Source of the DNA: Methanococcus voltae
Lineage (GTDB): Archaea > AGJL01 > Methanococci > Methanococcales > Methanococcaceae
NCBI RefSeq assembly: GCF_024807655.1
Contig: NZ_JANUCR010000004.1
Location: 117,282 to 141,281, forward strand
Reading direction: 5' to 3'
DNA: 24,000 nt
Of this stretch, positions 4,990 to 23,282 are shown piece by piece. A program made the translations under genes and the position numbers. Under the pieces are notes generated by a model. It was not told the DNA's origin. It did not search any database and saw only the letters and a list, made by a program, of their open reading frames with translations. Position 1 is the first letter of the stretch, and every line of letters starts with the position of its first letter.

Positions 4990-5050
4990 TTGGATGTATT
5001 GCCCTCAATAAAACATATGAATATCAAATTTTAATTTACGAGGTGAATTA

Positions 5051-5410: not shown

Positions 5411-5423
5411 ATGAGGTGGATAG

Positions 5424-6014: not shown

Positions 6015-6020
6015 TAGATA

Positions 6021-7883
6021 ATGAAAAAACATTATTATCTATTCTTTTTATTTTTACTGATAACAATAAATTCAGCCTTTGCACAGACTGGTTATTATAT
6101 GGAATTTTCCGCAGATTATACGGAAGATATACTCCAACAAAAGTTTAATACCACTTGGCAAGGATACACTCCTCAAATAGAATCAATACAAGGTAATATC
6201 GTATATTTTCAAACTGAAAAAGATGTACTTAGAGCATTTGTGAATCCGTCATATTCAGCAGATAGTTTATTTGTTTCTAACGTAGATTTGTATATAAATA
6301 ACGAATTAACGGAATATACAATATATAAGATGACTTCACAAACAAGTAAAGATTTTAATTATACATCGTATTCACCTTGCGGAGCTTATTTATTTGGTTC
6401 TTCATATGGTAAATACCTCTATTCTGGTTCAAATGTATATTTGGACGGAGTCAGTTGCTGGGGTTCAACTTCGGGAACAGTCTATGGAGATTATAACGCT
6501 ATATTAACTAATGCTGGAACTGTATCCATAATTGCCAATTATGATTCAACACAACCGCCAAATTCTATAGTATGGTTAGTAGCAAAAGGTGCTGTAGATA
6601 TTCCTACAGCTAATCAAAGATTAGTTACACCATTACCGAGAGGTACTATAAAACTTATAGTAGACGACTGTAATTTAAAAATAGGCGGTAAAATACAATC
6701 TATAACTAATAATACAGAACTTTACGTACCTGTAGGAACTTATACTTTAGAATTCTCCAAAGCTGGCTTTTGGAATGAGTCAAGAACTTTAACAGTTATT
6801 GAAAATGAAACTATAAACTTAAATGTTGATTTATTCCCTGAATCATCGATATTTAAAATAAGTCAGTTAGACACCGTAAATACCTATCAAAATAATGAAT
6901 TTGTAGTTAAAATGAACGTAGCCCCTGTACAAGAGGTTACAAGCGTTAGACTTGAATTTCCAACAACAGAAGCAGTTTCTGTAAGAAAAGGAATCGAAGA
7001 AATAACTAAAAATAGCGATAATATATACCAATTAGGAACTATAGGAACAGAGGGAACCGAATTAACTTTAAGATTACCTGCAGGAGCTTTAACCGGTTCA
7101 AGATACATAAATATGAGAATAACCGGTGCAGATTATTCCGGAGAACTCTATGTACAAAATAAAATGATTAACTACAACGTACAAGAATTACCTATACAAG
7201 TTGATATACCAAGTTTAGTAGCTGGAAATAATAATATTAAAATAACTGATAAATCAGGTGGTGCTCAAAGACTTTCAATACTCCTAAAAGACGAAGATAC
7301 GAACGTATATTCAAAAGACTATGATTTAGGAGCTTACCAATCTATTAACTTTGATGTTGACTTAGAAGTTAAAGATTACATATTAACTATTTCTACAGAC
7401 AATTACGAAGCTAAGTATACACTTAATATTAAAAATGCTGTAATAGTGCCTACCAAGAGCTTTGAGATTTCGAAAGGAAGTGAATTAAGAGTCCCTTTAC
7501 AAATAACAAATCCTTACCCATTAACAAAATATTATACTGTAAAATTACAAGGAACTTCTGAAAGCTGTTTAACAAATAATACAGAATTAACTTATTCAAT
7601 AGCTCCACAAGAAACAAAAACGGTTTATGCAATAGCTAATTTAAAAGATAGTTTACAATACGATAGCTATTCAACAATAACTAAAGTAATATTAGATAAT
7701 GAAGAAATACATTCTGAAACTATAACTATAAATATAAAAACATCAGGATTTATCCCTATTATCGATGATGAAAACGGTATAAGTAGTAATACATTAATTA
7801 TCGGTGGAATCACCATTATTATATTAGGCGGTGGAATCCTTTATTTAAGAAGTAGAAAGAAAGGTAAAAAGGTGATAAAATGA
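6021..7883 (+). CDS. large surface protein: signal peptide, PEGA/CarboxypepD_reg-like beta domain, repeated beta-rich modules, C-terminal TM anchor
   Basis: 620 aa. The signal peptide is MKKHYYLFFLFLLITINSAFA. The segment GTIKLIVDD...VPVGTYTLEFSKAGFWNESRTLTVIENETINLNVDL matches the PEGA-like pattern. The C-terminal TM segment LIIGGITIIILGGGILYL is followed by RSRKKGKK. The stop overlaps the next start (ATGA at 7880-7883). Confidence 0.8.
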   Translation: MKKHYYLFFLFLLITINSAFAQTGYYMEFSADYTEDILQQKFNTTWQGYTPQIESIQGNIVYFQTEKDVLRAFVNPSYSADSLFVSNVDLYINNELTEYTIYKMTSQTSKDFNYTSYSPCGAYLFGSSYGKYLYSGSNVYLDGVSCWGSTSGTVYGDYNAILTNAGTVSIIANYDSTQPPNSIVWLVAKGAVDIPTANQRLVTPLPRGTIKLIVDDCNLKIGGKIQSITNNTELYVPVGTYTLEFSKAGFWNESRTLTVIENETINLNVDLFPESSIFKISQLDTVNTYQNNEFVVKMNVAPVQEVTSVRLEFPTTEAVSVRKGIEEITKNSDNIYQLGTIGTEGTELTLRLPAGALTGSRYINMRITGADYSGELYVQNKMINYNVQELPIQVDIPSLVAGNNNIKITDKSGGAQRLSILLKDEDTNVYSKDYDLGAYQSINFDVDLEVKDYILTISTDNYEAKYTLNIKNAVIVPTKSFEISKGSELRVPLQITNPYPLTKYYTVKLQGTSESCLTNNTELTYSIAPQETKTVYAIANLKDSLQYDSYSTITKVILDNEEIHSETITINIKTSGFIPIIDDENGISSNTLIIGGITIIILGGGILYLRSRKKGKKVIK

Positions 7884-9922
7884 AGCGATTAATAGCTTTA
7901 TTAACCTTATTACTTTTAGTTTCTCCAACGTATGCCGTAGATGTTAATAATCCTGTCGATTGGGTTTTAGCACCTATGAAATTTATTACGAATCCATTAT
8001 TTACTGTGACAGAATATGCAGTAGCTGGATTTTATGAGGCATATGACTATATGAACTCATTAGTATTTGGTGAAGATGTAGCATTAATGTTAAACAATAC
8101 TGTAGTTAATCAAACTCTTGAGGAAAAAAGAGACTTTAAAGAGTATGATTTTACAACAGATTCCAAACAACTTTTAGACCTTTTAAAAGAAAAAACAGCT
8201 TCTGAAATGGTTGTTTACACAGTCGATACTTCGGGAAATAATGATATAACTACAAGATTATATGCTCCCGATAAAATATATGGATACTCGGCTTTCCCAA
8301 CAAAATTATCAATTACAAAATGTACTGGGGATTCATTCCACGTAACAAATGTAAAAATATATGTTAAATCCAATAACAATAGTGAAATAAAATATTACTT
8401 ATTAGATAAAACCTATAATCAAACATTTAATCAATTAGAGAACGCTTATGATTCAGAATATGAAATCGAAGGTTCGGATACAGTGGATACAATAATGAAA
8501 GCTCCTGATACACATAGTGTACGAGTTAGAGACTTTACTGCAAATGCAAACGTTGATTACTCAGATATCGAAGAGATATTATCTTCAAATGTAGAACCAT
8601 TTGAAATATACTATGAAGTTCACGGACACATTGAAAAATGGGTCGAATATACTGTAACTGGTGATGATGGAGTTCAAAGAGAAGTTAGAAAGAGGCAAGA
8701 TATACAAGTAGACCATTTAGGAAATACTAATGGTTTAGATGGTAGAATCAAAAACGGAAACTATATGATAGGTTCATTTTCTAAAGGTTCATTACCTGTA
8801 GACTATTTAGAATCTGATGGAGATAAATTAATACCTTATGAATCCGTATGTCAAGGTTCTACAAGTAATATATTAAGCGTATTATGGAGTTCACCCGTAA
8901 ATGCAGTTAATAGAAGCCCTGATATGCGTTATGTATACATAGATAATTGCGGTGAATTATTTACACGTGCAGGAGTTCCCGCTAAAATTTACGACGATGT
9001 TGCAATTGTAACATTAAGAGAAACTACAAACCACGAAATAGAAATATCAAGTAAAAAAGCTATTCAAAAGGGTTATTTTACAAGCGTTGACCCTATCCAA
9101 ATTTACACAAGTTACACAGCTAATAACGAAGAAGATTTATTAGACTTTACAACTTACGGTATCGTTTACGGTGAAATAACAAGAACAGATGGCGTAAAAA
9201 TACCAGTATGGACGATTAATAAACCTACAATATTTGTTTACGGTTCAGAAAGAACTGTGGCAGGTCAAACTTTAGAAGAATTAGACGATTTACGTAGTCT
9301 TTCCGAGTGGGACGAATCGTCAAGAGAAAGAGTTTTAAATATATTAGTCTCTACAAATAATAGTTTAAATAACAAGATAGCAACAGCTGAAAACTATAAA
9401 GAAAAAGCAGAAATAGCGAGTTCTTCAAAAGCGATAGACTGTGCAGATAAAGCAATTGAAAATTATAAAGAAGGTACTGTATTACTTACAGAGCTTCACA
9501 ACAGCTTTATAAAACTTTACGAATCTACTGATTATAATAATGAAAATAAAATAGAAGAAGTAGATGATACTTTAGAAATCGTTAGAGTCTATGAGGTAGC
9601 AGGAGATGAATTCCTTAAGGCATCTAAACTTTATACTTATGGAAAAGATGAACAAGCAGAGCAAGTCGAAAAAGATGCTAAAGATTTGACTGAAAAATCA
9701 GCAGTACCAATATTTGGAAATGGCGGATTAATAGACAATACTAATCAATTTATAGAATGTTGGATTCTAAAGATACCTATAATAGGCGAATCACTTAATA
9801 ACTTAATAAAAAACATACCTTTTGGATATGTAACCTTAATAACCTTAGGATTAATAATTGTAATATATCAAAATAGAAGTTCTGTATCAAAAAGTTATAG
9901 ACGTTATAAAAGACGATATTAA
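7880..9922 (+). CDS. large surface protein: signal peptide, beta-rich ectodomain, ~190-aa helical stalk, C-terminal TM anchor
   Basis: 680 aa. The signal peptide is MKRLIALLTLLLLVSPTYA. A helical, charged region runs from ~aa 455 to 620. An amphipathic segment (FIECWILKIPIIGESL) precedes the TM segment YVTLITLGLIIVIY. The tail is SYRRYKRRY. Confidence 0.8.
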   Translation: MKRLIALLTLLLLVSPTYAVDVNNPVDWVLAPMKFITNPLFTVTEYAVAGFYEAYDYMNSLVFGEDVALMLNNTVVNQTLEEKRDFKEYDFTTDSKQLLDLLKEKTASEMVVYTVDTSGNNDITTRLYAPDKIYGYSAFPTKLSITKCTGDSFHVTNVKIYVKSNNNSEIKYYLLDKTYNQTFNQLENAYDSEYEIEGSDTVDTIMKAPDTHSVRVRDFTANANVDYSDIEEILSSNVEPFEIYYEVHGHIEKWVEYTVTGDDGVQREVRKRQDIQVDHLGNTNGLDGRIKNGNYMIGSFSKGSLPVDYLESDGDKLIPYESVCQGSTSNILSVLWSSPVNAVNRSPDMRYVYIDNCGELFTRAGVPAKIYDDVAIVTLRETTNHEIEISSKKAIQKGYFTSVDPIQIYTSYTANNEEDLLDFTTYGIVYGEITRTDGVKIPVWTINKPTIFVYGSERTVAGQTLEELDDLRSLSEWDESSRERVLNILVSTNNSLNNKIATAENYKEKAEIASSSKAIDCADKAIENYKEGTVLLTELHNSFIKLYESTDYNNENKIEEVDDTLEIVRVYEVAGDEFLKASKLYTYGKDEQAEQVEKDAKDLTEKSAVPIFGNGGLIDNTNQFIECWILKIPIIGESLNNLIKNIPFGYVTLITLGLIIVIYQNRSSVSKSYRRYKRRY

Positions 9923-9930: not shown

Positions 9931-9941
9931 CTTTTTTTTTA
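9931..9941 (+). terminator. oligo-T tract after the membrane-protein cluster
   Basis: CTTTTTTTTTA lies 9 nt after the stop at 9922. Archaeal terminators are oligo-T runs. The tract overlaps the diverged 5' part of the terminal CRISPR repeat. Confidence 0.35.
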
Positions 9942-12581
9942 TTTTCCTTGTTTTAATGGATTATGCACTGTGACTGCTACGTCTAATTTAATATTCTTTT
10001 CTGTAGACATGTTTCAATCCTTGTTTTAATGGATTATGCACTGTGACACTTGCAGTATTAATCTGTCTAGGTTTCGAAAAACCAGTTTCAATCCTTGTTT
10101 TAATGGATTATGCACTGTGACCCTGTTGCCGTCCGTATTCTCCCAATTTAACAGATTGTTTCAATCCTTGTTTTAATGGATTATGCACTGTGACTTAAAT
10201 ACGGACTTTGCGGGGGTTATATACAATATAGGTTTCAATCCTTGTTTTAATGGATTATGCACTGTGACCATGTCTACTAAACCCCACTCTCTTTCAGTAT
10301 CTGAGTTTCAATCCTTGTTTTAATGGATTATGCACTGTGACTGATGGAGAAGTGACAGGATCTTCCTTCGAAGCATGTTTCAATCCTTGTTTTAATGGAT
10401 TATGCACTGTGACTTATACAAGATTTGCGGTGAAATTGAAATATTAATAACGTTTCAATCCTTGTTTTAATGGATTATGCACTGTGACTTTTAAATTATC
10501 TAAAAGTATTTCAGCTTGTTCCTTGCTGTTTCAATCCTTGTTTTAATGGATTATGCACTGTGACTACAGACATTGCTAAAAAAATATATCATTGTGATAA
10601 TAGGTTTCAATCCTTGTTTTAATGGATTATGCACTGTGACTTTTAACAACAAAAATGTTGTTAGTATCATTTAATTAGTTTCAATCCTTGTTTTAATGGA
10701 TTATGCACTGTGACAAACCATCTGAAGAGTTGCCAAATCATATATATATACAATCGTTTCAATCCTTGTTTTAATGGATTATGCACTGTGACATAGTAAT
10801 CAGCAAAAAGCTAAAGAATTGGAGAATATATGTTTCAATCCTTGTTTTAATGGATTATGCACTGTGACTGATGTACTTAGCTTGCTTTTCTGAGACTCTT
10901 ATCTGCAGTTTCAATCCTTGTTTTAATGGATTATGCACTGTGACAAAATTGTATTCAATTGTACAAAGAAATTTAGTAGGTTTCAATCCTTGTTTTAATG
11001 GATTATGCACTGTGACATGTGTATGTACCTAATCGATTAAGAGATGAACGTTTCAATCCTTGTTTTAATGGATTATGCACTGTGACAAAATCTTGTGGAA
11101 TGACTATTGATGATATTGCAGAGTTTCAATCCTTGTTTTAATGGATTATGCACTGTGACTATCATATTGATTGTATGCTGATGTATAATCAATATTACGT
11201 TTCAATCCTTGTTTTAATGGATTATGCACTGTGACTTTATCATACCCCCATACTTTTAACAAATAGGGTGTGTTTCAATCCTTGTTTTAATGGATTATGC
11301 ACTGTGACTTGTACGAGGCTCGTTAGTATCGGCTATAATGTTAGTTTCAATCCTTGTTTTAATGGATTATGCACTGTGACTAAAATAATAAAATATATTT
11401 CATAATACATTAACAAATTTTGTTTCAATCCTTGTTTTAATGGATTATGCACTGTGACCACAAGATAACAGTACAAAATTTAACGATAGTTTATTAAGTT
11501 TCAATCCTTGTTTTAATGGATTATGCACTGTGACATTTTATCCTCTTAGGTATATTGGGAATAGATATATGTTTCAATCCTTGTTTTAATGGATTATGCA
11601 CTGTGACTAAATATTTATTTAATTATTTAATAGAAATATTTATAGTTTCAATCCTTGTTTTAATGGATTATGCACTGTGACTGACCTTTTTAGATGAATA
11701 GTATTACAAAACAATAATTATGTTTCAATCCTTGTTTTAATGGATTATGCACTGTGACTTTTTTTCTAAAAGGACAGTTCAAAAAATTCTATGATAGTTT
11801 CAATCCTTGTTTTAATGGATTATGCACTGTGACAAAAAGGTCATATAGGATATATTGATGAATCTATATATTGTTTCAATCCTTGTTTTAATGGATTATG
11901 CACTGTGACATTCATATAATATAATTAGTTGAAAAACTAAATATTGAAGTTTCAATCCTTGTTTTAATGGATTATGCACTGTGACTCTTCTGTAAATCGT
12001 CTAACCGCGTGCTTACAGACGATGGTTTCAGTTTCAATCCTTGTTTTAATGGATTATGCACTGTGACACAGATGACGAACCGTACGGACACGGTGCAAAA
12101 AGTGCAAGTTTCAATCCTTGTTTTAATGGATTATGCACTGTGACTTTATTTTATTATGTTGTTTTTAAGTCAACATAAGTTTCAATCCTTGTTTTAATGG
12201 ATTATGCACTGTGACTAAATGGCGTAAAACTATTCATATAAAAGATATTTAGTTTCAATCCTTGTTTTAATGGATTATGCACTGTGACGTTCAGGTTTAC
12301 CCCTTAACCCATCAATTACTTGTCGGTTTCAATCCTTGTTTTAATGGATTATGCACTGTGACCCATATTGTACAAGAACAAAGTTATTATCAAGAAGAGT
12401 TTCAATCCTTGTTTTAATGGATTATGCACTGTGACTAGTGTCGCTATCGGTGCCAGTACACTTATTGCCAGGTTTCAATCCTTGTTTTAATGGATTATGC
12501 ACTGTGACTATTGATATGTTTGAACCACATATCAACGAATTATGGTTTCAATCCTTGTTTTAATGGATTATGCACTGTGAC
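9938..12581 (-). CRISPR. CRISPR array, 36 repeats (35 identical 37-nt repeats plus 1 degenerate terminal repeat) and 35 unique spacers of 33-45 nt
   Basis: The plus-strand repeat is GTTTCAATCCTTGTTTTAATGGATTATGCACTGTGAC. Hand-indexed repeat starts are 9938 (degenerate: TTTATTTTCCTTG...), 10011, 10085, 10158, 10232, 10305, 10377, 10452, 10528, 10604, 10678, 10756, 10832, 10908, 10980, 11050, 11123, 11199, 11272, 11344, 11422, 11498, 11571, 11645, 11722, 11797, 11873, 11949, 12031, 12108, 12179, 12252, 12326, 12399, 12472 and 12545. The reverse complement ends in ATTGAAAC, the source of the typical 8-nt Cas6 5' handle, and the degenerate repeat is at the low-coordinate end. The leader is therefore on the 12582 side and transcription is on the minus strand. 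Confidence 0.97.
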
Positions 12582-13040
12582 ACGTAGTTAAATTATTACT
12601 CACCAATAAGCATTTAAAACAGCTTATAGATTAAACAAAGCTCTATTTAGCCGTATCGCAAAAATAATGTAATTCAGCAATATATAGTTTGTTTCAGACC
12701 CTATATAAAAGTTACCATTTGTATTTTAAAATTATAATTCGGGGTTAGTTGAATATATAAAAAGTAACTCTTTTAATAAATACAAAATAACTAAGAACTA
12801 ATAATCAAACCATACAGAATGAATTGAGCATATAACTAATAGAATAGATTAAACAAATCTCATAGTATCTACTAAATTTTTTAACTCTAAAAAAAGAAGC
12901 TCAGAACGGGCTTAATAATTTTGGATTTTGAAATGCGTTATTACAAAGGTCACGTAAAAATCATACTAAGTATTACTCTACATAATCTCAACGTTTATTT
13001 TTTAAAAAAATATATAAAATCCCTTAAAATATCGTTAAAA
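12582..13040 (-). promoter_or_regulatory. CRISPR leader with two promoter-like GTWAC-TTTTTATATA elements
   Basis: This AT-rich region has no ORFs. Minus-strand TTTATATA boxes lie at 12702-12709 (preceded by GGTAAC) and 12754-12761 (preceded by GAGTTAC). The proximal box is ~120 nt upstream of the first repeat. The 18-mer ATAGATTAAACAAAKCTC occurs twice, starting at 12626 and 12844. Confidence 0.4.
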
Positions 13041-13045
13041 TATAT

Positions 13046-13071
13046 AAAAAGGACAAAACATTGGTTTTGTC
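13046..13071 (-). terminator. hairpin plus T-run terminator downstream of the TPR gene
   Basis: On the minus strand, GACAAAAC-CAAT-GTTTTGTC (a perfect 8-bp stem at 13052-13071) is followed by CTTTTT. It lies ~50 nt after the stop at 13119. Confidence 0.5.
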
Positions 13072-13118
13072 AGTTGTGAAAAATAAAATAGTAAACAATT
13101 AGGGTAAATATTCAGTGG

Positions 13119-15653
13119 TTATCTATAATTAATTAGTGAATCATTAACCGTCACTCCTTTTCTATTCAAATAAATTTCCCATCTATTTTTATTTACAAGT
13201 TTTGGCCCCATTGTTACCTTCTCAATATATTTATCATATTTATTATTTTCATCATTTAGGCTTTTTTCTATATCTATATACATTCGTTCTGGGAATTCTT
13301 CATATTCATTAAATTCTTTCAGAACATGGAATTGTATAGATTCATCATCCGTGGGTAAGGTAACTAAAACTCTCATTTCACGCTCTTCTTTATAATCTGA
13401 CGATTTTATTAAATAGCTAACGTCATTTAGTATGGAAATTATCATATCAGTTACTCTTTCTTTTTCAATTTTGGACGTTAATTCTTCGTAAATTTTATAT
13501 ATTTTTTTTAATTCTATATCGATTTGGTAAGTAAACTCTTCTAATTCACGTAACTTTTCTAGTTCTTTAATATATCGTTTAATATCCTTATATTTTTCAT
13601 ATTTTTTTAAGTTATCAATGATAGTTTTTAGCTCGTTTTGACGGTTTTGATGATCCTTAAAATCTCTAGAAAGACAATCATTTAATTCTTTTTTAGATAT
13701 ATAACTTACATCATATAAATTATAATATATTTTACGTTCTTTTTCAAAATGGGTTAATTCCAAAGGATTTTTGGATTTATTAATATTATCATAACTTTGG
13801 GAATTTACAAATGAGGTATTTAATTCGTCTAAGGATTTATCCATTAATTTCATAGGTTCTAATTGGGGGTCTAACTCATTATCAAAGAAATTTTCTTTAA
13901 AAACTATATTAAGTCCTCCAGCTTCTTCATCGTTATCATTTTTACCATAAGTCCTCCATAAATATAATCTGTCAGTATCGGGTAAAAAACTACCTATAAA
14001 TGTTGTTTGAATACTATATCCGTCATTATTTTTATTAAATAATTCTTTATACTGTTTTTTACATAATTCATTTACTAATAATTTTCCCTCTTCAGGATCG
14101 TTCATATATTTTGCATTATATAATCTAAGGTAAGATTTAGTAAAATTATTCCCTTTATTTTTTTCTTCTTCAAAGTCTTTTTCTGGTACAATTAAGGATT
14201 TAACTGTTGATGGTTTGGTATAATGAACTATTAAATTATTATTAGTTGACTGGTTTTTAGAATTTTTATTATTGATATTAATAGTTTTAATTTGTTTATT
14301 TTTAAAGTCGTTTACTTTTTCCGCAAGACTTATGGTACTTTCTATAAGTTCATTTGTGATTTTTAAATTTTTTAAATTTTTGAGGTAATAATTATTAATA
14401 TATCTTGACATATTTTTTTTATATTTTATATTTTTAGATTCGTTATAATCTTGATTCGATTTTTCAATTTGATCTAATTTATCATATCCAATACTTCTAT
14501 TGAGATATACCTCATAATTATTTTTATCTAACGCAACTGCTCGATTAAGGTCTTCTATTGCTTTCGTTTTATTATTTAGTGTTAGATAAATAAAGCTTCT
14601 ATTATTATAACCCATAGGATTTTTTGGATTTATTTTTATTGCATTATTGAAATCTTCCATGGCATTATCATATTGTTTTAGCTCACTGTACACTATTCCT
14701 CGATTAATATATGCGTCATAATTATTATTATCCAAGTTTATGGCTATATTGTAATCTTTTAATGCTTTATCATATTTTTTAAATATTTTATGCAATGTAC
14801 CTCTTTCAAAATATGATTTTGAATTATTTTGAATATTGATAATATAATTATTGTCTTTTAATGCTTTATCATATTCTCTTAACTCAACATAGATATTTCT
14901 TCTATTTATCAGTGCTTTAACGTTTTTATTATCTAATTCCAAAGCTTTGTTTAAGTAGAATAATGCTTTATCATATTTTTTTAACATTTTATATAATGTT
15001 CCGAGATTATATTTTGTATTGGAATCATTTTTCAACTCATCTGCTTTTTGGAAATCTTCCATGGCATTATTATACTTTTTTAGTTCGCCATATAAGCACC
15101 CCCTATTTTCATAGGCATCAGTATTAGTATAATCTATATTGAGAGCATTATTGAAATCTTCCATGGCATTATTATACATTTTTAATTTGGTGTATATAAG
15201 ACCCCTATTTGAATAAGATTTGGAATCTTTTCTTATACTAATGGCAGTTGTAAAATCATCAATGGCTTTATCGTACTTTTTTAGCTCACTATATATTATT
15301 CCCCTATTGAGATATACATCAGTATATTTAGAATTTAACGATAATGCCATATCGTAATCTTTTAATGCTTCACTATATTTTTTAAGTATTTTATATAACG
15401 TACCTCTATTAAAATACAACTTTGGATCATTATTTTTTAACATAATAGCAGTTGTAAAATCATTGATGGCATTATCATATTGTTTTAGCTCACTATATAC
15501 TATTCCCCTATTAGTATAAAAGTCAGGATTTTTATTTTGAAACTCTTCAATTTTATTTAATTTATCTAAAGCTTCAACATATTTGTGATTCTTTAATAAA
15601 TTGTTAATTTCATAAGGTAATTTACCATATTTTTTAGATACTCTTTTACTCAT
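13119..15653 (-). CDS. TPR-repeat protein (about 11 TPRs) with C-terminal DUF2971-like domain carrying a coiled-coil insert
   Basis: 844 aa. A GGTG RBS lies 7 nt before the ATG. Residues ~10-405 are 34-aa TPR units (recurring Y.NRG..Y..LK.YD.A..DF..A). From aa ~474 the motifs are LIVHYTKPSTVKSLI, LRLYNAKYMNDPEEG, FIGSFLPDTDRLYLWRTYG...GGLNIVF, EEREMRVLV and KVTMGPK. This matches my memory of the Pfam DUF2971 pattern. There is no P-loop. Confidence 0.85.
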   Translation of the reverse strand: MSKRVSKKYGKLPYEINNLLKNHKYVEALDKLNKIEEFQNKNPDFYTNRGIVYSELKQYDNAINDFTTAIMLKNNDPKLYFNRGTLYKILKKYSEALKDYDMALSLNSKYTDVYLNRGIIYSELKKYDKAIDDFTTAISIRKDSKSYSNRGLIYTKLKMYNNAMEDFNNALNIDYTNTDAYENRGCLYGELKKYNNAMEDFQKADELKNDSNTKYNLGTLYKMLKKYDKALFYLNKALELDNKNVKALINRRNIYVELREYDKALKDNNYIINIQNNSKSYFERGTLHKIFKKYDKALKDYNIAINLDNNNYDAYINRGIVYSELKQYDNAMEDFNNAIKINPKNPMGYNNRSFIYLTLNNKTKAIEDLNRAVALDKNNYEVYLNRSIGYDKLDQIEKSNQDYNESKNIKYKKNMSRYINNYYLKNLKNLKITNELIESTISLAEKVNDFKNKQIKTININNKNSKNQSTNNNLIVHYTKPSTVKSLIVPEKDFEEEKNKGNNFTKSYLRLYNAKYMNDPEEGKLLVNELCKKQYKELFNKNNDGYSIQTTFIGSFLPDTDRLYLWRTYGKNDNDEEAGGLNIVFKENFFDNELDPQLEPMKLMDKSLDELNTSFVNSQSYDNINKSKNPLELTHFEKERKIYYNLYDVSYISKKELNDCLSRDFKDHQNRQNELKTIIDNLKKYEKYKDIKRYIKELEKLRELEEFTYQIDIELKKIYKIYEELTSKIEKERVTDMIISILNDVSYLIKSSDYKEEREMRVLVTLPTDDESIQFHVLKEFNEYEEFPERMYIDIEKSLNDENNKYDKYIEKVTMGPKLVNKNRWEIYLNRKGVTVNDSLINYR

Positions 15654-15876
15654 TAAAACACCATTATATTTTATACTTAAAAATGGGGTGAAAATAGTAT
15701 AAAAAATAGTTACATTTAGTACGGAATAAAAACAATACTTTTTTTAAATTTTAAACGATATAAAAAGAATTATATAATTAAGGGACTAATTATTTATTAA
15801 ATTTATATGCATAATATACGCATATTTTATAAAAATAATTTTTAATTTAAATAACTTATTCAATTATAATTTATAT

Positions 15877-18660
15877 ATGGTGGACGATATGGAAGTTGAA
15901 AGCGAATCGCAACTTGAAAATAAATTTATTAAACAATTAGTTAATCAAGGTTATTCAAGAATTAAAATAGAAGATGAAAAAGACTTAGAAAATAATTTTA
16001 GAGAACAATTATATTTACACAATAAAGAAAAATTAGATAATATTCCATTTAGTGATTATGAATTTAACAAGATCATGACTCAGTTATCTGGCAAAAGCAT
16101 ATTTGAAAGTGCTAAAATACTTCGAGATAAATGCATATTAGAGCGTGATGAGGGCAATACTCCTAAAAAAGTATATCTTGAATTTATCGATAGTAATAAC
16201 TTAAATAACAATATATTTCAAGTAACTAATCAAATTACGATGAAAGGAAAGTATGAAAATCGTTATGACGTTACCTTATTAATAAATGGCTTGCCTTTGA
16301 TACAAGTCGAATTAAAAAAGGCAGGTGTCGATATAAAAGAAGCTTTTAATCAAGTTATGAGGTATAGGAAGCATTCTTATAAAGGTCTTTTTAGATACAT
16401 ACAAATTTTTGTAATTGGAAGTAATAAAAATGTTAAGTATTTTGCAAACCGTGATGGGGAAATTTTATTTAATAGTGCTTTCTTCTGGGCTAATGTAGAT
16501 AATAAGCGTATAACTAACTTGGATGAATTTGCAGATAACTTTTTAGAAAAAAATCGTATTGCTAAAATTATTTCCGAATATATGATTATTAACGAGTCGG
16601 ATAAAAATCTAATGGTTATGAGACCTTATCAGATTTATGCGGTTGAATCCATTTTAGACCGTGCCATAAATACGAATAGTAACGGATACGTTTGGCATAC
16701 GACGGGCAGTGGTAAAACACTTACATCTTTTAAAGCAAGTCAATTATTAGCGAATAATCCCAAAATTGACCGGGTTTTCTTTTTAGTTGATAGAAAAGAT
16801 TTGGATGCACAAACAATAAAGGAATTTAATAAATTTGAAAAGGATTCTGTAGATGATACGGATAATACTAAAAATTTAGTTAAGCAAATTCAAGAAATTG
16901 ATAGAAAATTAATAGTTACTACAATTCAAAAAATGAGTATAGCCATTAAATCTGAAAAATATGCTGAAATAATGGACAAATACAAAGATGATAAAGTAAT
17001 ATTCATAATAGATGAATGTCATAGGTCTCAATTTGGTGAAATGCACAGGGTTATAAAAAAGCATTTCGTTAACGCTCAATATTTTGGATTTACAGGTACA
17101 CCAATCTTTAAGGAAAATAAAGGGGCTAAAGACATGGTCACTGCCGATTTGTTTAAAAAATGTTTACATACATATCTTATAAAAGATGCAATTAGGGACG
17201 GTAACGTATTGGGATTCCTTATTCAGTATTTTAAAACTTTTGAAGGTAACTATGATAAAAATGATGATACAAAAATTTATAAAATAAATAAAAAAGAGCT
17301 TTGGAGTACAGACGAACGTATATCCCTAATTTGTAATGACATTGTTAAAAATCATAACTTAAAAACACGTGATAAAGAATACTGTTCTATATTTGCGGTG
17401 GATAGTATTCCATCACTTATAAAGTACTATAATAAATTTAAAGAGTTTGACCACGATTTAAAAATAGCCGGAATTTATACTTATGAAGCTAATGAGGCCA
17501 GTGCGGGCATAAATGCAGAGCATTCTCGGGATATTTTAGAACGAATAATCAGCGATTATAATAAAATTTATAATACGAATTATTCAACAGATACATTTTC
17601 AAATTATTTCATAGATATTTCTAAAAGATTAAAAAATGGCCAAATTGATATTTTACTTGTCGTAAATATGTTTTTAACAGGTTTTGACAGTAAATTATTG
17701 AATACAATTTATATCGATAAAGATATGAAATATCACAATTTAATACAGGCTTTTTCAAGAACTAATAGGGTATATTCTGCGAATAAACCACATGGTAATG
17801 TAGTATGTTATAGAAATTTGAGAGAGAAAACTGAAAATGCTATTCGTTTATTTTCTCAAACGGATGATGTAGATACTGTACTTATGGAAAGCTACGAATT
17901 TTATTTGGATAAATTTAAAGAACGCTTAGAAAAATTACATAATATCGCAAATACGCCTGACGATGTAGATTTGATAGAAGGTGAATCAAAAACTTCCGAA
18001 TTTGTTATGGCATTTAAAAATTTGACTAAGGTACTTGTTACGATGAAGAATTTTGTAGAATTCGAATTTGAAGAGGATAAACTTGGCATTGATGAACAAA
18101 CATATCAGGAGTATAAAACTAAATACCTTATGGTCTATGATGATGTAACTAGAGGTGAATACGAAGGTACATCAGTTCTTAAAGACATAGATTTTAGTAT
18201 TGAGTTAATGTATACCGATAAAATAAATGTGGATTATATTCTCAATCTTTTAAAGAATTTGGATATAGATAATACCAAAAATAGAGATAAAGAAATAAAA
18301 GATATCGTCGATAAGTTGAAAAAGGCAGATAATGAAGAATTAAGATTAAAAGTAGAATTAATACAGGAATTTTTAGAAAAAGAAGTCCCAAAAATTATCG
18401 AATTAAATAATCAGGATGATATTGAATCATTATATTATGAATTTGAAGATAAAAAAAGAACAGAAGAAGTTGAAGAATTTGCAAAAGAAAATAATATCGA
18501 TACTACCAAATTATGGAGCTATGTGGAAGAATATGATTACTCGAAAACTTTGGATAAAAAAGCCGTAGGCGATAGTATTTCAGCTCCATTTTTGAAGAAA
18601 AAGAGAATTATCAATAAAGTTAGCGAATTTATACAATATCAGGCTAAAAAATACGCTTAA
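15877..18660 (+). CDS. hsdR: type I restriction enzyme R subunit (EcoR124-like / type IC pattern)
   Basis: The N-terminal PD-(D/E)xK nuclease motif is YDVTLLINGLPLIQVELKK. Helicase motifs are WHTTGSGKTLT, IIDECHRSQFG, FTGTPIF and LTGFDSKLLNTIYIDKDMKYHNLIQAFSRTNR. The real start may be the ATG at 15889, because GGTGGA lies 4 nt upstream of it. Confidence 0.92.
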   Translation: MVDDMEVESESQLENKFIKQLVNQGYSRIKIEDEKDLENNFREQLYLHNKEKLDNIPFSDYEFNKIMTQLSGKSIFESAKILRDKCILERDEGNTPKKVYLEFIDSNNLNNNIFQVTNQITMKGKYENRYDVTLLINGLPLIQVELKKAGVDIKEAFNQVMRYRKHSYKGLFRYIQIFVIGSNKNVKYFANRDGEILFNSAFFWANVDNKRITNLDEFADNFLEKNRIAKIISEYMIINESDKNLMVMRPYQIYAVESILDRAINTNSNGYVWHTTGSGKTLTSFKASQLLANNPKIDRVFFLVDRKDLDAQTIKEFNKFEKDSVDDTDNTKNLVKQIQEIDRKLIVTTIQKMSIAIKSEKYAEIMDKYKDDKVIFIIDECHRSQFGEMHRVIKKHFVNAQYFGFTGTPIFKENKGAKDMVTADLFKKCLHTYLIKDAIRDGNVLGFLIQYFKTFEGNYDKNDDTKIYKINKKELWSTDERISLICNDIVKNHNLKTRDKEYCSIFAVDSIPSLIKYYNKFKEFDHDLKIAGIYTYEANEASAGINAEHSRDILERIISDYNKIYNTNYSTDTFSNYFIDISKRLKNGQIDILLVVNMFLTGFDSKLLNTIYIDKDMKYHNLIQAFSRTNRVYSANKPHGNVVCYRNLREKTENAIRLFSQTDDVDTVLMESYEFYLDKFKERLEKLHNIANTPDDVDLIEGESKTSEFVMAFKNLTKVLVTMKNFVEFEFEEDKLGIDEQTYQEYKTKYLMVYDDVTRGEYEGTSVLKDIDFSIELMYTDKINVDYILNLLKNLDIDNTKNRDKEIKDIVDKLKKADNEELRLKVELIQEFLEKEVPKIIELNNQDDIESLYYEFEDKKRTEEVEEFAKENNIDTTKLWSYVEEYDYSKTLDKKAVGDSISAPFLKKKRIINKVSEFIQYQAKKYA

Positions 18661-18706
18661 ATACACTAAATACACTAAATACACTAAATACACTAAATAT
18701 ACTTAA
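18651..18706. repeat. 9-bp tandem repeat ATACACTAA x4, flanked by two degenerate 10-bp copies
   Basis: The sequence reads ATACGCTTAA, then ATACACTAA four times (18661-18696), then ATATACTTAA. The first degenerate copy contains the hsdR stop codon. Confidence 0.9.
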
Positions 18707-18838
18707 AATATTTAATTAACTATTACTTTTTTAAATTTAATTAAATGATAAATTAAAATATAGGTAAAGATAATTACGTAATAGATTAATAATATTATAA
18801 TGATAATTTAATAAAATAATAATATATTAAGGGTAATT

Positions 18839-20383
18839 ATGATAACAAGCACTAAACAAAAAGAACAAAAAAATCAATTAAATACTAAATTATGGTCCAT
18901 TGCCAACGATTTAAGGGGTAATATGGAACATAATGAGTTTAAAAATTATATTTTAGGAGTAATTTTTTATAGATATCTTTCTGAAAAATTGGAAAATAGG
19001 GTTTCTAACTTACTTAAAGAAGATAACATAACTTATGCGGAAGCTTGGAATGACGAAGAATACACTGAAGAGCTTAAAGAAGAATTATTAGATGAAATAG
19101 GTTATTATATTGCACCAGAATATTTATTTTCCACAATGGTAAATAAAATAACGAATACTAAAGACTTTACAATTGAGGAATTATCCAAAGCAATTGGTAG
19201 TATAAACGAATCTACACTCGGAACAAAAAGTCAGGATGCTTTTGAAAATTTATTTGACGATTTAGATTTGGAATCCAACAAACTTGGCCAGAAAGTAGAA
19301 GCAAGGTCTAAACTTATGGCTAAAGTACTTTCTAAGATTGCAGAAATTGATTTTAGTCACGAAGATTCTGAAATTGATGTTTTAGGAGATGCTTATGAGT
19401 TTTTAATATCTCAGTTTGCTTCAAGTGCGGGAAAGAAAGCAGGGGAATTTTATACACCTCAACAAGTATCTAAAATATTGGCCAAAATTGTAACGATGGG
19501 TAAAAAAGATTTAAAAAGTGTTTACGACCCAACTTGTGGTTCAGGCTCTTTATTACTTAGGATATCAAAAGAGGCAGATGTACGTAAATTTTACGGTCAA
19601 GAAGTTATATCGACCACTTACAACTTGGCACGTATGAATATGTTATTACACAACGTATCTTATGATAAATTTGACATACAAAATGATGATGTTTTAGAAA
19701 ACCCTAAACATTTGGGTAAAAAGTTTGATGCAGTAGTTGCAAATCCACCATATTCTCAAACTTGGGATAATTCTATGCATAATGATGACGATAGATTTAG
19801 CGAATATGGAAAAATGGCTCCAAATTCCAAAGCAGATTTTGCTTTTGTACAACATATGATTTACCATTTAGCAGATAAAGGTGTCATGGCCGTTGTATTA
19901 CCTCACGGTGTATTATTTAGGGGTAATGCAGAGGGTACTATAAGAAAATACCTTATAAAAGAAAAGAATTATTTAGATGCTGTGATAGGACTACCGTCAA
20001 ATATATTCTTTGGAACGGGTATTCCTACAACTATATTGGTATTTAAAAAATGCAGAGAAACTGGGGACAATGTTTTATTTATAGATGCTTCAAACGATTA
20101 TGAACCTGGTAAAAATCAAAATATACTTAGGGACGAAGACGTTGAGAAAATAATTGATACCTATAAAGAAAGAAAAGCAATTGATAAATATTCAGCGGTT
20201 GCTACTTTGGACGATATAAAAGAAAATGATTACAATTTAAATATTCCTCGATATGTGGATACTTTTGAAGAAGAAGAACCAGTCAATATGGAAAAAGTTA
20301 AAGCAGAAATTAAAGAATTAAAAGAACAATTTTTAAAACAGGATGAAGATTTAGAAAAAATATTAAATGAATTAGAATTATAA
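18839..20383 (+). CDS. hsdM: type I R-M N6-adenine DNA methyltransferase subunit
   Basis: Motif I is DPTCGSGSLLL. Motif IV is VVANPPYS. The N-terminal HsdM_N-like region is WSIANDLRG...FKNYILGVIFYRYLSE. An AGGGTAA RBS lies upstream. Confidence 0.93.
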   Translation: MITSTKQKEQKNQLNTKLWSIANDLRGNMEHNEFKNYILGVIFYRYLSEKLENRVSNLLKEDNITYAEAWNDEEYTEELKEELLDEIGYYIAPEYLFSTMVNKITNTKDFTIEELSKAIGSINESTLGTKSQDAFENLFDDLDLESNKLGQKVEARSKLMAKVLSKIAEIDFSHEDSEIDVLGDAYEFLISQFASSAGKKAGEFYTPQQVSKILAKIVTMGKKDLKSVYDPTCGSGSLLLRISKEADVRKFYGQEVISTTYNLARMNMLLHNVSYDKFDIQNDDVLENPKHLGKKFDAVVANPPYSQTWDNSMHNDDDRFSEYGKMAPNSKADFAFVQHMIYHLADKGVMAVVLPHGVLFRGNAEGTIRKYLIKEKNYLDAVIGLPSNIFFGTGIPTTILVFKKCRETGDNVLFIDASNDYEPGKNQNILRDEDVEKIIDTYKERKAIDKYSAVATLDDIKENDYNLNIPRYVDTFEEEEPVNMEKVKAEIKELKEQFLKQDEDLEKILNELEL

Positions 20384-20395
20384 ATTAAATAAATA

Positions 20396-20406
20396 TTTTT
20401 ATTTTT
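20396..20406 (+). terminator. T5-A-T5 tract between convergent hsdM and hsdS
   Basis: TTTTTATTTTT lies within the 21-nt gap between the hsdM stop (20383) and the hsdS stop (20405). Confidence 0.35.
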
Positions 20407-21652
20407 AACATTTAACTCGTATTTCTCCAGTAAGTAACTTCTGCATTAAACCTTTTTTTTGCATTTTTAAAAGTTCTAATTTTTCCTTTAAAATTTCTAT
20501 TTCTTTATCTTGCAATGATAAAACTTCTGCAATTTGTTCCTGTTCTTCAAGTGTTGGAAGTTGTATTTTCATATTTTTAATGTCTTTTCCATATAAATGA
20601 ACTATTGTAGTTCCTTGTGCATATTTTGCTAATTCATATTTTTTACCATATGTTAAATAATATGCCAAAAATTCGTTATTATATTTATTTTCGTATTTTT
20701 TTCTTAATATATTAATATCTCCCCCCAATATTACGTTTTCTTCATTTATTGCTGTAGCATTTGCTAAATCAATCCCTGTAGTAGTGGTAGATGCGGGTAT
20801 TAATATATCCCCTTTTTCGGAATGTATTTTTTCTTTAAAATCTGTTTTACTAAGCACTTCTTTTATAACTTCAGAATATGTCGTATATAGTTCACCGTAT
20901 AATATGCACTTAAATTTACCATTTTTATTTAACTTTTCTTTAGATAATCCATTACCTTTTAAAAATTTGCAAATTTCACCTAATTTAACTTCTTTCCATT
21001 CTTCATTAAATCCTGGGAAACGAACTTTACCAGTTAATAAATTTTGCATTAAACCTTTTTTATATTCTTCCTTTTTAGAAATTAAATTTTCTAAAGTTTC
21101 AATATGATTATCCCATTTTGTTAAGATTTCCGCAATTTTTTGCTGTTCTTTTAATGGGGGAAGTGGTATACATAAATTTCGTAGTGATTTCAAAGATAAA
21201 TTTTTAATTGTAGAGCCAGTCAATTCCGAATAAAATTGAGAAACAGTTCTGGGAGATTGAATAACATAATAAATAAAATTTTTAATATTTTTATTTTTTA
21301 GATTAATATAAGCCACACTTTTGCCCAACAAAATTTTTTCATTGTTATAATATGAGCAATTTCCAATAGTTCCATTTATCGATAATAATAATGCATCTTC
21401 TGCAATTTTTTGTTTTAATTTATTAAATTCTTCAAAACTTATTAATTTAGTATCGTTAGTATGTACAATAGTCCCATTTTTTAAATTATTTCCATTTATA
21501 AAATAATATTTTCCATTAGTACAATATTTTGGAGTACTATGTATCCCATCACCAATGAAACTACAAACGTCCCCTAATTTTTTAACTTCCCAATCATTAG
21601 GTATCAAACCTATTTTAGTTTCTTTATATCCTTCTTTTATCATTTTTATCAC
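20405..21652 (-). CDS. hsdS: type I R-M specificity subunit (two target-recognition domains)
   Basis: 415 aa. It has two variable TRDs and the duplicated conserved regions LPPLKEQQKIAEIL...KKGLMQNLLTGKVRF and LPTLEEQEQIAEVL...KKGLMQKLLTGEIRV. It is oriented opposite to hsdR and hsdM. Confidence 0.92.
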   Translation of the reverse strand: MIKMIKEGYKETKIGLIPNDWEVKKLGDVCSFIGDGIHSTPKYCTNGKYYFINGNNLKNGTIVHTNDTKLISFEEFNKLKQKIAEDALLLSINGTIGNCSYYNNEKILLGKSVAYINLKNKNIKNFIYYVIQSPRTVSQFYSELTGSTIKNLSLKSLRNLCIPLPPLKEQQKIAEILTKWDNHIETLENLISKKEEYKKGLMQNLLTGKVRFPGFNEEWKEVKLGEICKFLKGNGLSKEKLNKNGKFKCILYGELYTTYSEVIKEVLSKTDFKEKIHSEKGDILIPASTTTTGIDLANATAINEENVILGGDINILRKKYENKYNNEFLAYYLTYGKKYELAKYAQGTTIVHLYGKDIKNMKIQLPTLEEQEQIAEVLSLQDKEIEILKEKLELLKMQKKGLMQKLLTGEIRVKC

Positions 21653-21655
21653 TAT

Positions 21656-21811
21656 TTAATTTTTCCTTATAACAATAGCTTTTTCTCCGTCAAATATTTC
21701 ATGAGTGACATTAACTTCTCTATCTTCTAAATCTTTTAAAATAAATTCTACGTCCGATTTACTTAAAGTTACTGCGAAAGCGTTTCCATTTTTATAAATC
21801 TTTTTAATCAA
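21656..21811 (-). CDS. AbrB/MazE (SpoVT-type swapped-hairpin) like small protein, TTG start; absent from the ORF track
   Basis: My own minus-strand translation is (M)IKKIYKNGNAFAVTLSKSDVEFILKDLEDREVNVTHEIFDGEKAIVIRKN, 51 aa. The K.GNa.AVtLsK ... dg..ivIrk pattern resembles MazE/AbrB antitoxin-type DNA binders. A GGTGAT RBS lies 3 nt before the TTG. The stop lies 3 nt before the hsdS ATG. Confidence 0.5.
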   Translation of the reverse strand: MIKKIYKNGNAFAVTLSKSDVEFILKDLEDREVNVTHEIFDGEKAIVIRKN

Positions 21812-21859
21812 ATTATCACCAAAATTATTCTAACGTAATATACGATGTATCATACAAAA

Positions 21860-21867
21860 TATATAAA
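21860..21867 (-). promoter_or_regulatory. TTTATATA box upstream of the AbrB-like/hsdS transcription unit
   Basis: The minus strand reads CCCTTTATATATTTTG. The box lies ~50 nt upstream of the TTG at 21811. Confidence 0.35.
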
Positions 21868-21872
21868 GGGTG

Positions 21873-21946
21873 GTGGTTGGGGTCTTGTTGGTGGCGTATT
21901 TAATAACATTTTATATTGGCTTGGGACGTGGTTGGGGTCTGTGGCG
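21873..21946. repeat. G+C-rich direct repeat GTGGTTGGGGTCT...GTGGCG x2, spaced 55 nt
   Basis: GTGGTTGGGGTCT occurs at 21873-21885 (followed by TGTTGGTGGCG) and at 21928-21940 (followed by GTGGCG). The repeats lie immediately upstream of the minus-strand TATA box at 21860-21867. Confidence 0.6.
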
Positions 21947-21956
21947 AGCCAAAAGC

Positions 21957-21976
21957 CGAGGGAGTTAAATCCCTCG
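21957..21976 (-). terminator. perfect 7-bp hairpin (CGAGGGA-N6-TCCCTCG), probable terminator of the upstream minus-strand genes
   Basis: On the minus strand the hairpin is followed by GCTTTTGG. It lies ~90 nt after the stop at 22064. No plus-strand gene ends nearby. Confidence 0.35.
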
Positions 21977-22063
21977 TTTGCTCTTGTTTTGCTGTTTAAT
22001 GGTCATAATATCGTTATATTTTTATATATATCGTTATCGTTATAATTATAACTTATATATAAT

Positions 22064-22759
22064 TTATAAAATCTTTAAAACCGTTTCAGCGTATAAATCG
22101 TTTAAGCGGTCTTTAACTCTTTTATCTTTCGGTTTTAAAATTATTTTGCCGTTTTTAAATATTCTTATTTCTCCGACTTCCTTATAAGCTTCTGAAATTG
22201 TTTCTTTAAGTTCTTCAACATCTTTATTAAATGGCTTTTGGTATTCAATGTTAAAATTAAACTCTAAGTTTAATAACTCGGTTAGCTTGTCAAGTTCCCA
22301 AATCATATAATAGGTATCGTTTTCTATACGTCCACCGCTTAAAAGTACTCCTTTTTTATTCATATCTACAATAAAGTTTTTTATATCGTCGTTGCTCATT
22401 TCATTACGTTCTTTTTTTCTTCTTAAGTCCCATATAATATTAGAATAGCTTAAACTTCTCATCAACTGACTTATTTTAAGTTCTTTGGGGTTGGGATACT
22501 TTTTAATAAATATTTTTTCCATTTCTTCATAAGAATTCATATTCATTAAACTTCTTTCGGTCTCTGTATCGACTTTAATTTTATAATTATCCGCTAAAAG
22601 TTCAGAATATATATGTTCTTTCAATCTTCTTGTTAAATCGTGCTTAACGTGGAACATACAAATATTGTAATCTTTTTCAATCTTTTTAAGTTCATTCTCT
22701 AAGTTTTGTACGTTAACTGTTTTATATTCTGAAATTGCTTCCATATTTTCACCAACCAA
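22064..22759 (-). CDS. hypothetical protein (231 aa by ORF track; likely start is the ATG at 22744)
   Basis: The track start is a TTG at 22759. The ATG at 22742-22744 (MEAISEYK...) is preceded by GGTTGGTGA at 4-nt spacing and is more convincing. No family recognised. Confidence 0.65.
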   Translation of the reverse strand: MVGENMEAISEYKTVNVQNLENELKKIEKDYNICMFHVKHDLTRRLKEHIYSELLADNYKIKVDTETERSLMNMNSYEEMEKIFIKKYPNPKELKISQLMRSLSYSNIIWDLRRKKERNEMSNDDIKNFIVDMNKKGVLLSGGRIENDTYYMIWELDKLTELLNLEFNFNIEYQKPFNKDVEELKETISEAYKEVGEIRIFKNGKIILKPKDKRVKDRLNDLYAETVLKIL

Positions 22760-22858
22760 CCTATAATTTAATTTATTTGTTAAATTAATTAATAAATAAC
22801 TAAATAAATAATATATAATAAATAATTAAAAATCTATTAAAATTAATTAAATATTAAA

Positions 22859-23197: not shown

Positions 23198-23249
23198 CTC
23201 ACCAACTCCAAACTAAAAGATTGATTAAATAAATGATTAAATATTAAAT

Positions 23250-23279
23250 ATTAAATTAATAAATATTAAATTAATAAAT
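23250..23279. repeat. perfect tandem duplication of the 15-mer ATTAAATTAATAAAT (third copy at 22853-22867)
   Basis: Copies are at 23250-23264, 23265-23279 and 22853-22867. All sit at or just after the 3' ends of minus-strand genes. Confidence 0.8.
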
Positions 23280-23282
23280 AAA

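Follow-up and report, generated by a model that had tools for sequence, protein, structure and literature searches.

The question raised by this locus is what kind of protein is encoded between a clustered regularly interspaced short palindromic repeats (CRISPR) leader and a type I restriction-modification (R-M) system. The window, i.e. the whole 24,000-nt stretch of DNA that was analysed, comes from a Methanococcus voltae-like archaeon. It contains a complete gene at 13119–15653 on the minus strand (stop codon included), in which an array of tetratricopeptide repeats (TPRs) is joined to a C-terminal domain resembling ADP-ribosyltransferases (ARTs). We lean towards reading this gene as encoding an abortive-infection immune sensor-effector, cytoplasmic and made of a single polypeptide, with a probable ADP-ribosylating toxin domain at the C-terminus. 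Its catalysis, target, trigger and immune phenotype are what we infer from domain layout, conserved residues and genomic context. A sequence-only reading of the window had proposed a sensor-effector as well. The domain order, the lack of a nucleoside triphosphatase (NTPase) and the defence-type neighbourhood on which it was built stood up, and a sensor-effector that would act in immunity remains the best reading of the gene.

The gene has an ATG start and encodes 844 aa, as had been read from the open reading frame (ORF). The identical protein was also found on a Logan contig, where its gene adjoins the same hsdR. The N-terminal part of the protein (aa 12–411; 14421–15620, minus strand as for all parts of the gene) is a TPR array and the putative sensor of a ligand or protein. 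Pfam TPR_1 matched it with an E-value of 7.5e-68 (222 bits against a cut-off of 27.8 bits) and nine scored stretches. In a register of 34 aa, the units begin at aa 12, 46, 80, 114, 147, 181, 215, 249, 282, 315, 349 and 383. The resulting 11–12 units agree with the ~11 units at aa ~10–405 that had been counted before. An Asn/Lys-rich linker follows (aa 412–470; 14244–14420), which had no domain match and whose C-terminal end was modelled with low confidence. The rest of the protein (aa 471–844; 13122–14243) is a divergent DUF2971/DarT-like domain with ART-like features and the putative effector, an assignment based on PF11185 matches of homologues, DarT matches of a core model and conserved residues.

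The protein contains neither a Walker A nor a Walker B motif, and no NTPase family was among its Pfam, NCBIfam and PADLOC matches; the earlier statement that an NTPase motif is absent is thus correct. No signal peptide and no transmembrane or other hydrophobic segment were found in the protein, and a secreted-effector reading was rejected on these grounds. Lysine, asparagine and tyrosine together make up ~35% of its residues.

The C-terminal domain had been called DUF2971 by its motif order. By homology to bona fide members, this call held. PF11185, the Pfam model of DUF2971, matched eight of 11 close homologues in the domain alignment (best E 3.7e-7), and precomputed PF11185 matches were present on the relatives P0003, P0004, P0008 and others. 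The closest relatives were proteins of M. voltae and M. maripaludis with 31–45% identity, several of which had PF11185 matches. A member from Aerococcaceae (L047) reached 32.7 bits (cut-off: 22 bits). Moreover, Firmicute relatives are annotated as DUF2971, and Streptococcus members link to plasmid proteins that NCBI names 'DUF2971 domain-containing protein'. Membership is therefore transitive: judged by these sequence comparisons, the window protein belongs to a divergent DUF2971 subfamily.

The earlier statement that DUF2971 has no assigned biochemistry is outdated. A 2025 survey describes the family as a predicted ART with a modified H-Y-E site, including a strictly conserved Tyr and an ExE motif, and with large helical inserts between the core strands; DarT, AbiGi and Tox-ART-HYD1 are the most similar families (PMC12522546). 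One DUF2971 protein, the 316-aa Aristaios, was validated by experiment in 2024: its gene by itself confers abortive infection in Lactococcus (PMC11381338). According to a later report, the protein interferes with phage transcription (PMC13064643).

All motifs of the earlier reading were found in the order given there: HYT at aa 477, MNDPEEG at 517, GSF at 554, LWRTYG at 565, GGLNIVF at 579, EEREMRV at 756 and MGPK at 815. Three ART-type motifs (H477, Y569 and E757-x-E759) lie in the expected order on or beside predicted core strands. The motif I candidate H477-Y478-T479 (14217–14225) is located at the end of strand beta-1, as placed by the models. Residue conservation was computed over 128 domain sequences and was 99% for H477, 100% for Y478 and 99% for T479. 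The family signature loop M517-NDPEEG-523 (14085–14105; 98–100% conserved) follows the second strand. The motif II candidate is L565-WRTYG-570 with Y569 (13944–13961; W566 and Y569 100%, R567 99%). The ExE motif III candidate, Y754-KE-E757-R-E759-M-R761 (13371–13394), stands directly before a core strand, and its residues Y754, E757, E759 and R761 were each 100% conserved. The same was true for Y651 and K750, followed by S555 (99%), N513 (97%) and R510 (96%). All these residues are intact in the window protein. In the models, the His is on the first strand, the Tyr comes after the third strand and the ExE directly precedes a late core strand. This order fits the requirement of an ART core, and we infer catalytic roles of H477, Y569 and ExE from it.

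The core strands are separated by a helical, coiled-coil-like insert (aa 654–746; 13416–13694), which was evident from the AlphaFold helices and the gap profile. In the AlphaFold model, these long helices and a disordered stretch (aa 593–639) together divide the C-terminal domain, in agreement with the coiled-coil insert noted earlier. According to the gap profile, ~40 aa of it (aa 659–698) are additional relative to most of the family.

AlphaFold combined with Foldseek had been proposed as a check of the fold, and it gave a mixed answer. For a core-only construct, from which the variable inserts were removed and which was modelled with 47 native homologues (pLDDT, i.e. predicted local distance difference test, 81.9; predicted template modelling score 0.75), DarT structures ranked first. 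The top nine matches among 350,542 PDB chains were six DarT entries, two CteC mono-ART entries and one Tpt1 entry (tRNA 2'-phosphotransferase). The best of them were 7yk3_C (E 0.036) and 7omw, a structure with NAD+ (prob 0.91; template modelling (TM) score 0.44/0.46); further DarT entries among the top matches were 7yk3_A, 7omy, 7omx and 7omv. The answer for the full domain is given below, where the points against our reading are weighed.

The viral folds matched in a BFVD search were all those of uncharacterised proteins, which gave no information on the window domain. The best matches came from giant viruses, iridovirus IIV-6 (422L), baculoviruses and mycobacteriophage (prob 0.9–0.99, E 0.004–0.04). 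These viral proteins may themselves be unrecognised ART- or Tpt1-like proteins.

The position of the gene was compared with that in M. voltae GCA_017875625.1 (locus L002). Between conserved flanks lies a variable slot (13076–15667), which holds one gene (2.6 kb) in the window and five genes (9 kb) in the other strain. On one side, hsdR, hsdM and the shared intergenic region were 97.3% identical at the DNA level, and this identity ended 15 bp upstream of the start codon; the HsdR proteins were 98.3% identical. On the other side, the CRISPR leader shared 90.1% identity across 504 bp, and this similarity ended 44 bp beyond the stop codon. The window protein and its positional orthologue, by comparison, were 42% identical overall (ART domain 55.8%, TPR region 36.9%). 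The GC content of the gene is 24.1%, compared with 27.9% for hsdR, 30.3% for hsdM and 27.7% for the window on average. As an accessory allele, the window gene occupies a hypervariable slot.

The slot of the other strain contains the positional orthologue, a DUF2254 gene, a gene for a 582-aa protein, a second TPR-ART paralogue (P0001) and a gene for an HNH protein. The DUF2254 membrane protein and the 582-aa protein, a multi-pass protein with no family match, are encoded between the two paralogues (L002 5901–9533). The HNH protein (216 aa; L002 12011–12661) is weakly similar to type IV methyl-directed restriction enzymes.

The gene and the divergent hsdR have an AT-rich intergenic region of 223 bp in common (15654–15876). 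A GGTG ribosome-binding site (15662–15659, minus strand) is located 5 nt upstream of the ATG. Past the stop codon is a terminator-like site (13046–13071, minus strand), which consists of the hairpin GACAAAAC-caat-GTTTTGTC at 13071–13052 and a T-run at 13050–13046. The ribosome-binding site, the divergent intergenic region and the hairpin with its T-run had all been described correctly. The hairpin is not private to the gene, as had been supposed, because it lies inside the leader-proximal flank that is conserved with another strain. The intervals that separate the gene from the CRISPR leader and from hsdR contain no ORF of ≥60 aa.

The genomic context of relatives was surveyed in 79 loci from species-representative genomes, which formed 47 clusters at 60% identity. 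For 36 de-replicated clusters with good flanks, the 144 nearest (±2) genes were scanned. The top Pfam family among these neighbours was N6_N4_Mtase (seven genes), and ResIII and DEAD were each found four times. The top PADLOC models were those of type III methyltransferases (eight members, best E 2.3e-179). Mapping with seed proteins then brought to light a conserved same-strand operon of mod (540–580 aa), one to three TPR-ART genes plus variable cargo, and res (843–865 aa), which occurs in Nitrospirota, Gammaproteobacteria, Dehalococcoidia and Thermodesulfobacteriota. Twelve complete operons across four phyla were tabulated, and locus L088 holds one more with a truncated mod. Res matched REase_III (E 3.9e-221) and Mod matched MTase_III (E 1.3e-138). 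Gaps were often 2–40 bp, with often 2–4 bp to res, and some genes overlap. In Porisulfidus (L055), the family gene is divergent from type I hsdM/hsdR, the same arrangement as in the window.

The link to R-M systems was frequent but not obligatory: it was found in 19 of the 79 loci and 13 of the 47 clusters, and in the other 60 loci no R-M gene was present within 10 kb. The strongest contextual signal is this specific and recurring R-M link, not a generic placement in defence islands. The claim of a defence context held for the type of neighbourhood, and its most prominent component had not been anticipated; the copy in Methanocaldococcus infernus (see below) does not fit the claim.

Across 66 pairs of operons, the median identity was 64.8% for Mod, 70.5% for Res, 52.5% for the ART domain and 42.5% for the TPR region. 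In 65 of the 66 pairs, the ART domain had diverged further than either Mod or Res. The TPR part is the most diverged stretch of the gene, both between strains and between operons.

These data bear on a first alternative, a more specific version of a defence function, in which the protein would guard the R-M system. It would be held latent by the adjoining restriction complex, or would monitor it, and would fire when a phage anti-restriction factor disables the complex. A precedent is PrrC with EcoprrI and T4 Stp (PMC1484252, PMC3458546). Like the putative effector of the window, PrrC is a latent toxic effector encoded in or beside an R-M locus and serves as a second line once restriction has been countered, which for the window gene is a proposal; it differs as an ABC-type NTPase fused to an RNase and tied to the type Ic system EcoprrI, whereas the window protein has no NTPase and an ART-like effector (PMC1484252, PMC3458546). 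The recurrence of family genes inside mod–res operons, often within a few base pairs of res, favours such a guard. So do the divergent type I hsdR genes of the window and of Porisulfidus, the 97% conservation of the shared hsdR-proximal promoter region, the N6_N4 methyltransferase adjoining in M. maripaludis and the Type ISP enzyme near a Nitrospira relative. However, the TPR half evolves fastest while HsdR, Mod and Res are conserved, and a variable foreign ligand therefore fits better than the cell's own R-M complex. Most loci have no R-M neighbour within 10 kb, and in one Nitrospirales locus (L014) the TPR-ART gene was kept at the same hotspot although mod and res were lost. Furthermore, unrelated cargo genes are likewise present between mod and res, and this points to a hotspot for cargo rather than to functional coupling. 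Taken together, we consider a guard of the neighbouring enzyme unlikely.

The mod–res interval is a cargo hotspot in one type III lineage that is present in at least four phyla, with many sponge-associated metagenome-assembled genomes (loci L012, L013, L017, L021, L039, L041, L051, L052, L056, L059, L062, L069, L070 and L083). Apart from TPR-ART genes, the cargo included an 811-aa kinase fused to an ORC/CDC6-like ATPase, a second methyltransferase, DUF1828, a class-3 lipase, DUF6765 and a weak HEPN protein. The Nitrospirales loci L012, L013 and L014 have a common hotspot between a B12-binding radical-SAM gene pair and DUF3047/MetH, which carries varying sets of PIN or PemK toxin-antitoxin genes, methyltransferase, TPR-ART and res.

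Five bacterial loci (L021, L038, L041, L052 and L069) contain two or three family genes each. Such clustered genes differ strongly in TPR length (465, 610 and 977 aa in L041, for example). These multi-gene loci resemble clusters of diversifying immune receptors.

Mobile contexts were also found outside the type III operons. The M. maripaludis copies lie in an integrated element with integrase and MCM genes, and their neighbours are Schlafen-AlbA_2, N6_N4 methyltransferase, PAPS reductase, a nucleotidyltransferase (NTase) toxin-antitoxin pair and a resolvase. In a second alternative, the ART toxin would be selfish: it would stabilise the R-M cassette or element that carries it, or serve in competition between elements, and no virus would be sensed. 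The family indeed travels with a type III cassette that spreads horizontally across phyla, has members on plasmids and adjoins integrases, resolvases and toxin-antitoxin genes. Yet a cognate antitoxin gene was not detectable in the neighbours examined, and a long, fast-diversifying TPR array is not required for addiction. In addition, the sole DUF2971 protein tested so far acts against phage (PMC11381338). We regard an addiction toxin as improbable, and as less likely than a sensor-effector.

Several results weigh against the sensor-effector that we favour. PF11185 (gathering score 22 bits) did not match the full window protein or its C-terminal half even at E ≤ 1; taken at face value, this direct check, which the sequence-only reading had itself named, speaks against a DUF2971 domain. 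When the protein was scanned directly with Pfam, NCBIfam and PADLOC, all matches were TPR-driven, and no PADLOC defence model matched it beyond such noise. The matches to 'PrimPol' and 'MamA' are spurious because they were caused by the TPRs. The full-domain AlphaFold model (pLDDT 72.6) had no PDB match and no ART match by Foldseek, as the helical inserts dominate this search. For the core model, TM scores were just 0.41–0.46. Since none of its matches reached E ≤ 0.001, the ranking with DarT first is consistent with the proposed fold but a weak support of it. HMMER profiles of the domain and of the core found no solved ART among PDB sequences, only coiled-coil or eL28 noise. With respect to the context, the type III operons represent one spreading cassette and not many independent links, because their Mod and Res proteins are related (59–99% identity). 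Most Bacteroidota and Streptococcus contexts had no R-M neighbour, and the M. infernus homologue is located among housekeeping genes. Finally, no DarG-like or other obvious antitoxin gene adjoined any copy examined.

Some of these results are what would be expected from a third alternative, a housekeeping or regulatory ART, or an inert scaffold, whose TPRs recruit a cellular partner, for example in restriction alleviation of the neighbouring enzyme. The context in M. infernus, the missing defence-model match and the low statistical significance of the ART fold are compatible with it, and TPR proteins are mostly scaffolds. Against it, the gene varies in presence between strains, occupies a hypervariable slot, forms clusters of paralogues within single loci and evolves faster than the genes at its flanks. 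The invariant ExE, Tyr and His set further argues for catalysis. We therefore see little chance for a housekeeping or scaffold protein, and rate it, too, below an immune sensor-effector.

The architecture is not rare. A profile of the C-terminal domain found at least 252 clusters in one database, most of them with TPR Pfam matches. Among the representatives of a library clustered at 50% identity, 7,419 matched at E ≤ 1e-3, 2,424 at ≤1e-10 and 649 at ≤1e-30, and TPR arrays are present in most of the best matches. The combination of TPRs with an ART-like domain thus forms a large family across Bacteria and Archaea. The domain was at the extreme C-terminus in all 129 sequences compared, and it was preceded by at least 100 aa in 113 of them (median: 213 aa). 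The N-terminal region of the window protein is among the longest of these. TPR counts ranged from about 7 to more than 20, and Firmicute members have an N-terminal region with little or no recognisable TPR. By tblastn, no relatives were found in phages, and in plasmids the window domain matched only one TPR protein. Aristaios was not reached from a Streptococcus member in the plasmid search. The sequence-only reading knew of no described system with this architecture. We likewise found no published description of a TPR-DUF2971/ART fusion in the searchable literature; the implied uniqueness did not hold, given the size of the family. The TPR fusion, its embedding in R-M loci and its occurrence in Archaea are undescribed in that literature.

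An immune sensor-effector of this kind could work as follows. The ~11–12 TPR units would bind a protein or peptide that an invader (virus or plasmid) produces, perhaps a factor directed against restriction. Binding would relieve autoinhibition or alter the oligomeric state, and the helical insert is a candidate for the coupling element. The C-terminal divergent DUF2971 domain with its DarT-like ART core would then be activated and would use NAD+ to ADP-ribosylate nucleic acid or an essential protein. Replication or transcription would thereby stop in the invader and probably in the cell as well. A more far-reaching proposal is that TPR-ART proteins are a widespread and hitherto unrecognised class of restriction-coupled immune effectors, placed between type III mod and res or beside type I genes. 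In these, the diversifying TPR arrays would sense proteins of phages, possibly anti-restriction factors, whereupon nucleic acid would be ADP-ribosylated by the DarT-like domain. The window gene would then be the first ART-based abortive-infection effector described in Archaea. We put this extended version forward tentatively and with more doubt than confidence.

By analogy, the effector side of the protein appears most like Aristaios or DarT, and its overall logic like DSR2-type repeat sensors that lack an NTPase. DSR2-type proteins are NTPase-less single polypeptides in which a helical-repeat sensor of a phage protein is combined with an NAD+-consuming effector. In DSR2, an N-terminal SIR2 NADase precedes a C-terminal HEAT-like sensor, whereas in the window protein the TPR sensor precedes the ART-like effector. 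Avs/STAND proteins combine fast-evolving, repeat-type (often TPR) sensors with an effector domain, and the window protein shares this layout of sensor and effector. It is not an Avs/STAND protein because the central STAND NTPase is absent (no Walker A/B, no NTPase Pfam match). The contrast drawn earlier with these proteins, i.e. a missing NTPase and a reversed domain order, was confirmed.

The DarTG system acts against phage by ADP-ribosylating DNA. The window gene is not part of a DarTG system, as no DarG macrodomain antitoxin is present: no macrodomain was found among the top 25 Pfam families of the 144 neighbours or in the 10 of 18 intra-operon cargo genes that were scanned. In structure, the core model nevertheless matches DarT best (PDB 7omw, 7yk3), and a published sequence analysis has placed DUF2971 next to DarT (PMC12522546). 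Unlike DarT, the window domain has large helical inserts, no similarity detectable by HMMER and an H...Y...ExE motif (modified H-Y-E). Aristaios and the window protein are both of the DUF2971 type, predicted ARTs and encoded by a single gene with no antitoxin partner on mobile or variable DNA. Aristaios, from the Lactococcus plasmid pUCCL641, consists of the domain only (~316 aa) and was experimentally shown to cause abortive infection (PMC11381338, PMC13064643). The window protein differs from it by 458 aa of TPR array and linker, a longer helical insert, its archaeal origin and being missed by the Pfam model. The kinship of the two is transitive via the domain family, and the comparison was made with the published description.

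The flanks of the gene are as stated earlier, with a CRISPR leader on the 3' side and type I hsdR, hsdM and hsdS on the other side. The R-M system (15877–21652) comprises hsdR (15877–18660, plus strand), hsdM (18839–20383, plus strand) and hsdS (20405–21652, minus strand), identified by Pfam and PADLOC (REase_I E 6.7e-285). hsdS is on the opposite strand and convergent with hsdM. Past hsdS, three minus-strand ORFs of 231, 112 and 161 aa follow (21653–24000). The 231-aa and 161-aa ORFs had no Pfam match, and all three may be further cargo of the island.

The CRISPR array (9937–13075, minus strand) consists of 35 exact repeats of 37 nt, one degenerate terminal repeat and 34 spacers of 33–45 nt. 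The leader (~490 bp; 12582–13075) is part of the array region. As the reverse complement of the repeat ends in ATTGAAAC, the leader faces the 3' end of the TPR-ART gene. No cas genes were found in the window. Self-targeting was rejected, since comparison of the spacers with the window and loci L001–L009 gave only chance matches of ≤24 nt; the spacers matched neither the adjoining element nor any other fetched sequence. A CRISPR-accessory role of the TPR-ART gene was also rejected: in L002, the gene next to the leader is the HNH gene and not the TPR gene. Around the other homologues whose neighbourhoods were examined, neither CRISPR arrays nor cas genes were noticed, which likewise counts against such a role.

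The block across the array (12–9922) resembles a plasmid or virus-like element that has integrated. It contains a small AAA ATPase (1124–1681), several membrane proteins (4172–6014) and two large secreted or anchored proteins (6021–9922). At 7880–9922, a homologue of the protein T26-6p, known from plasmids of the pT26-2 family, is encoded; the Ig-like and helical domains of T26-6p were matched by Pfam with E 1e-19 to 1e-9. The window contains neither a tRNA nor an integrase. At 1682–3985 on the minus strand, the block encodes a P-loop NTPase of the KAP family with 767 aa (Pfam E 1.3e-39), which also matched the PADLOC model of PifA (E 1.6e-50). PifA is the phage-exclusion protein of the F plasmid. 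This gene is a second candidate abortive-infection gene, across the CRISPR array from the TPR-ART gene.

Defence-annotation tools miss the TPR-ART family because its members (649 representatives at E ≤ 1e-30) are annotated only as 'tetratricopeptide repeat protein'. The invariant H, Y and ExE residues and the readily swapped TPR arrays make mutants and chimeras obvious. If the sensor-effector reading is true, a design of repeat sensor plus ADP-ribosyltransferase that needs no NTPase would join the prokaryotic immune proteins, and ART-based immunity, known from DarTG and Aristaios, would be extended to Archaea. The conserved mod, TPR-ART, res operon that is spreading among phyla would then represent a testable layered defence, in which restriction is backed by a toxin.

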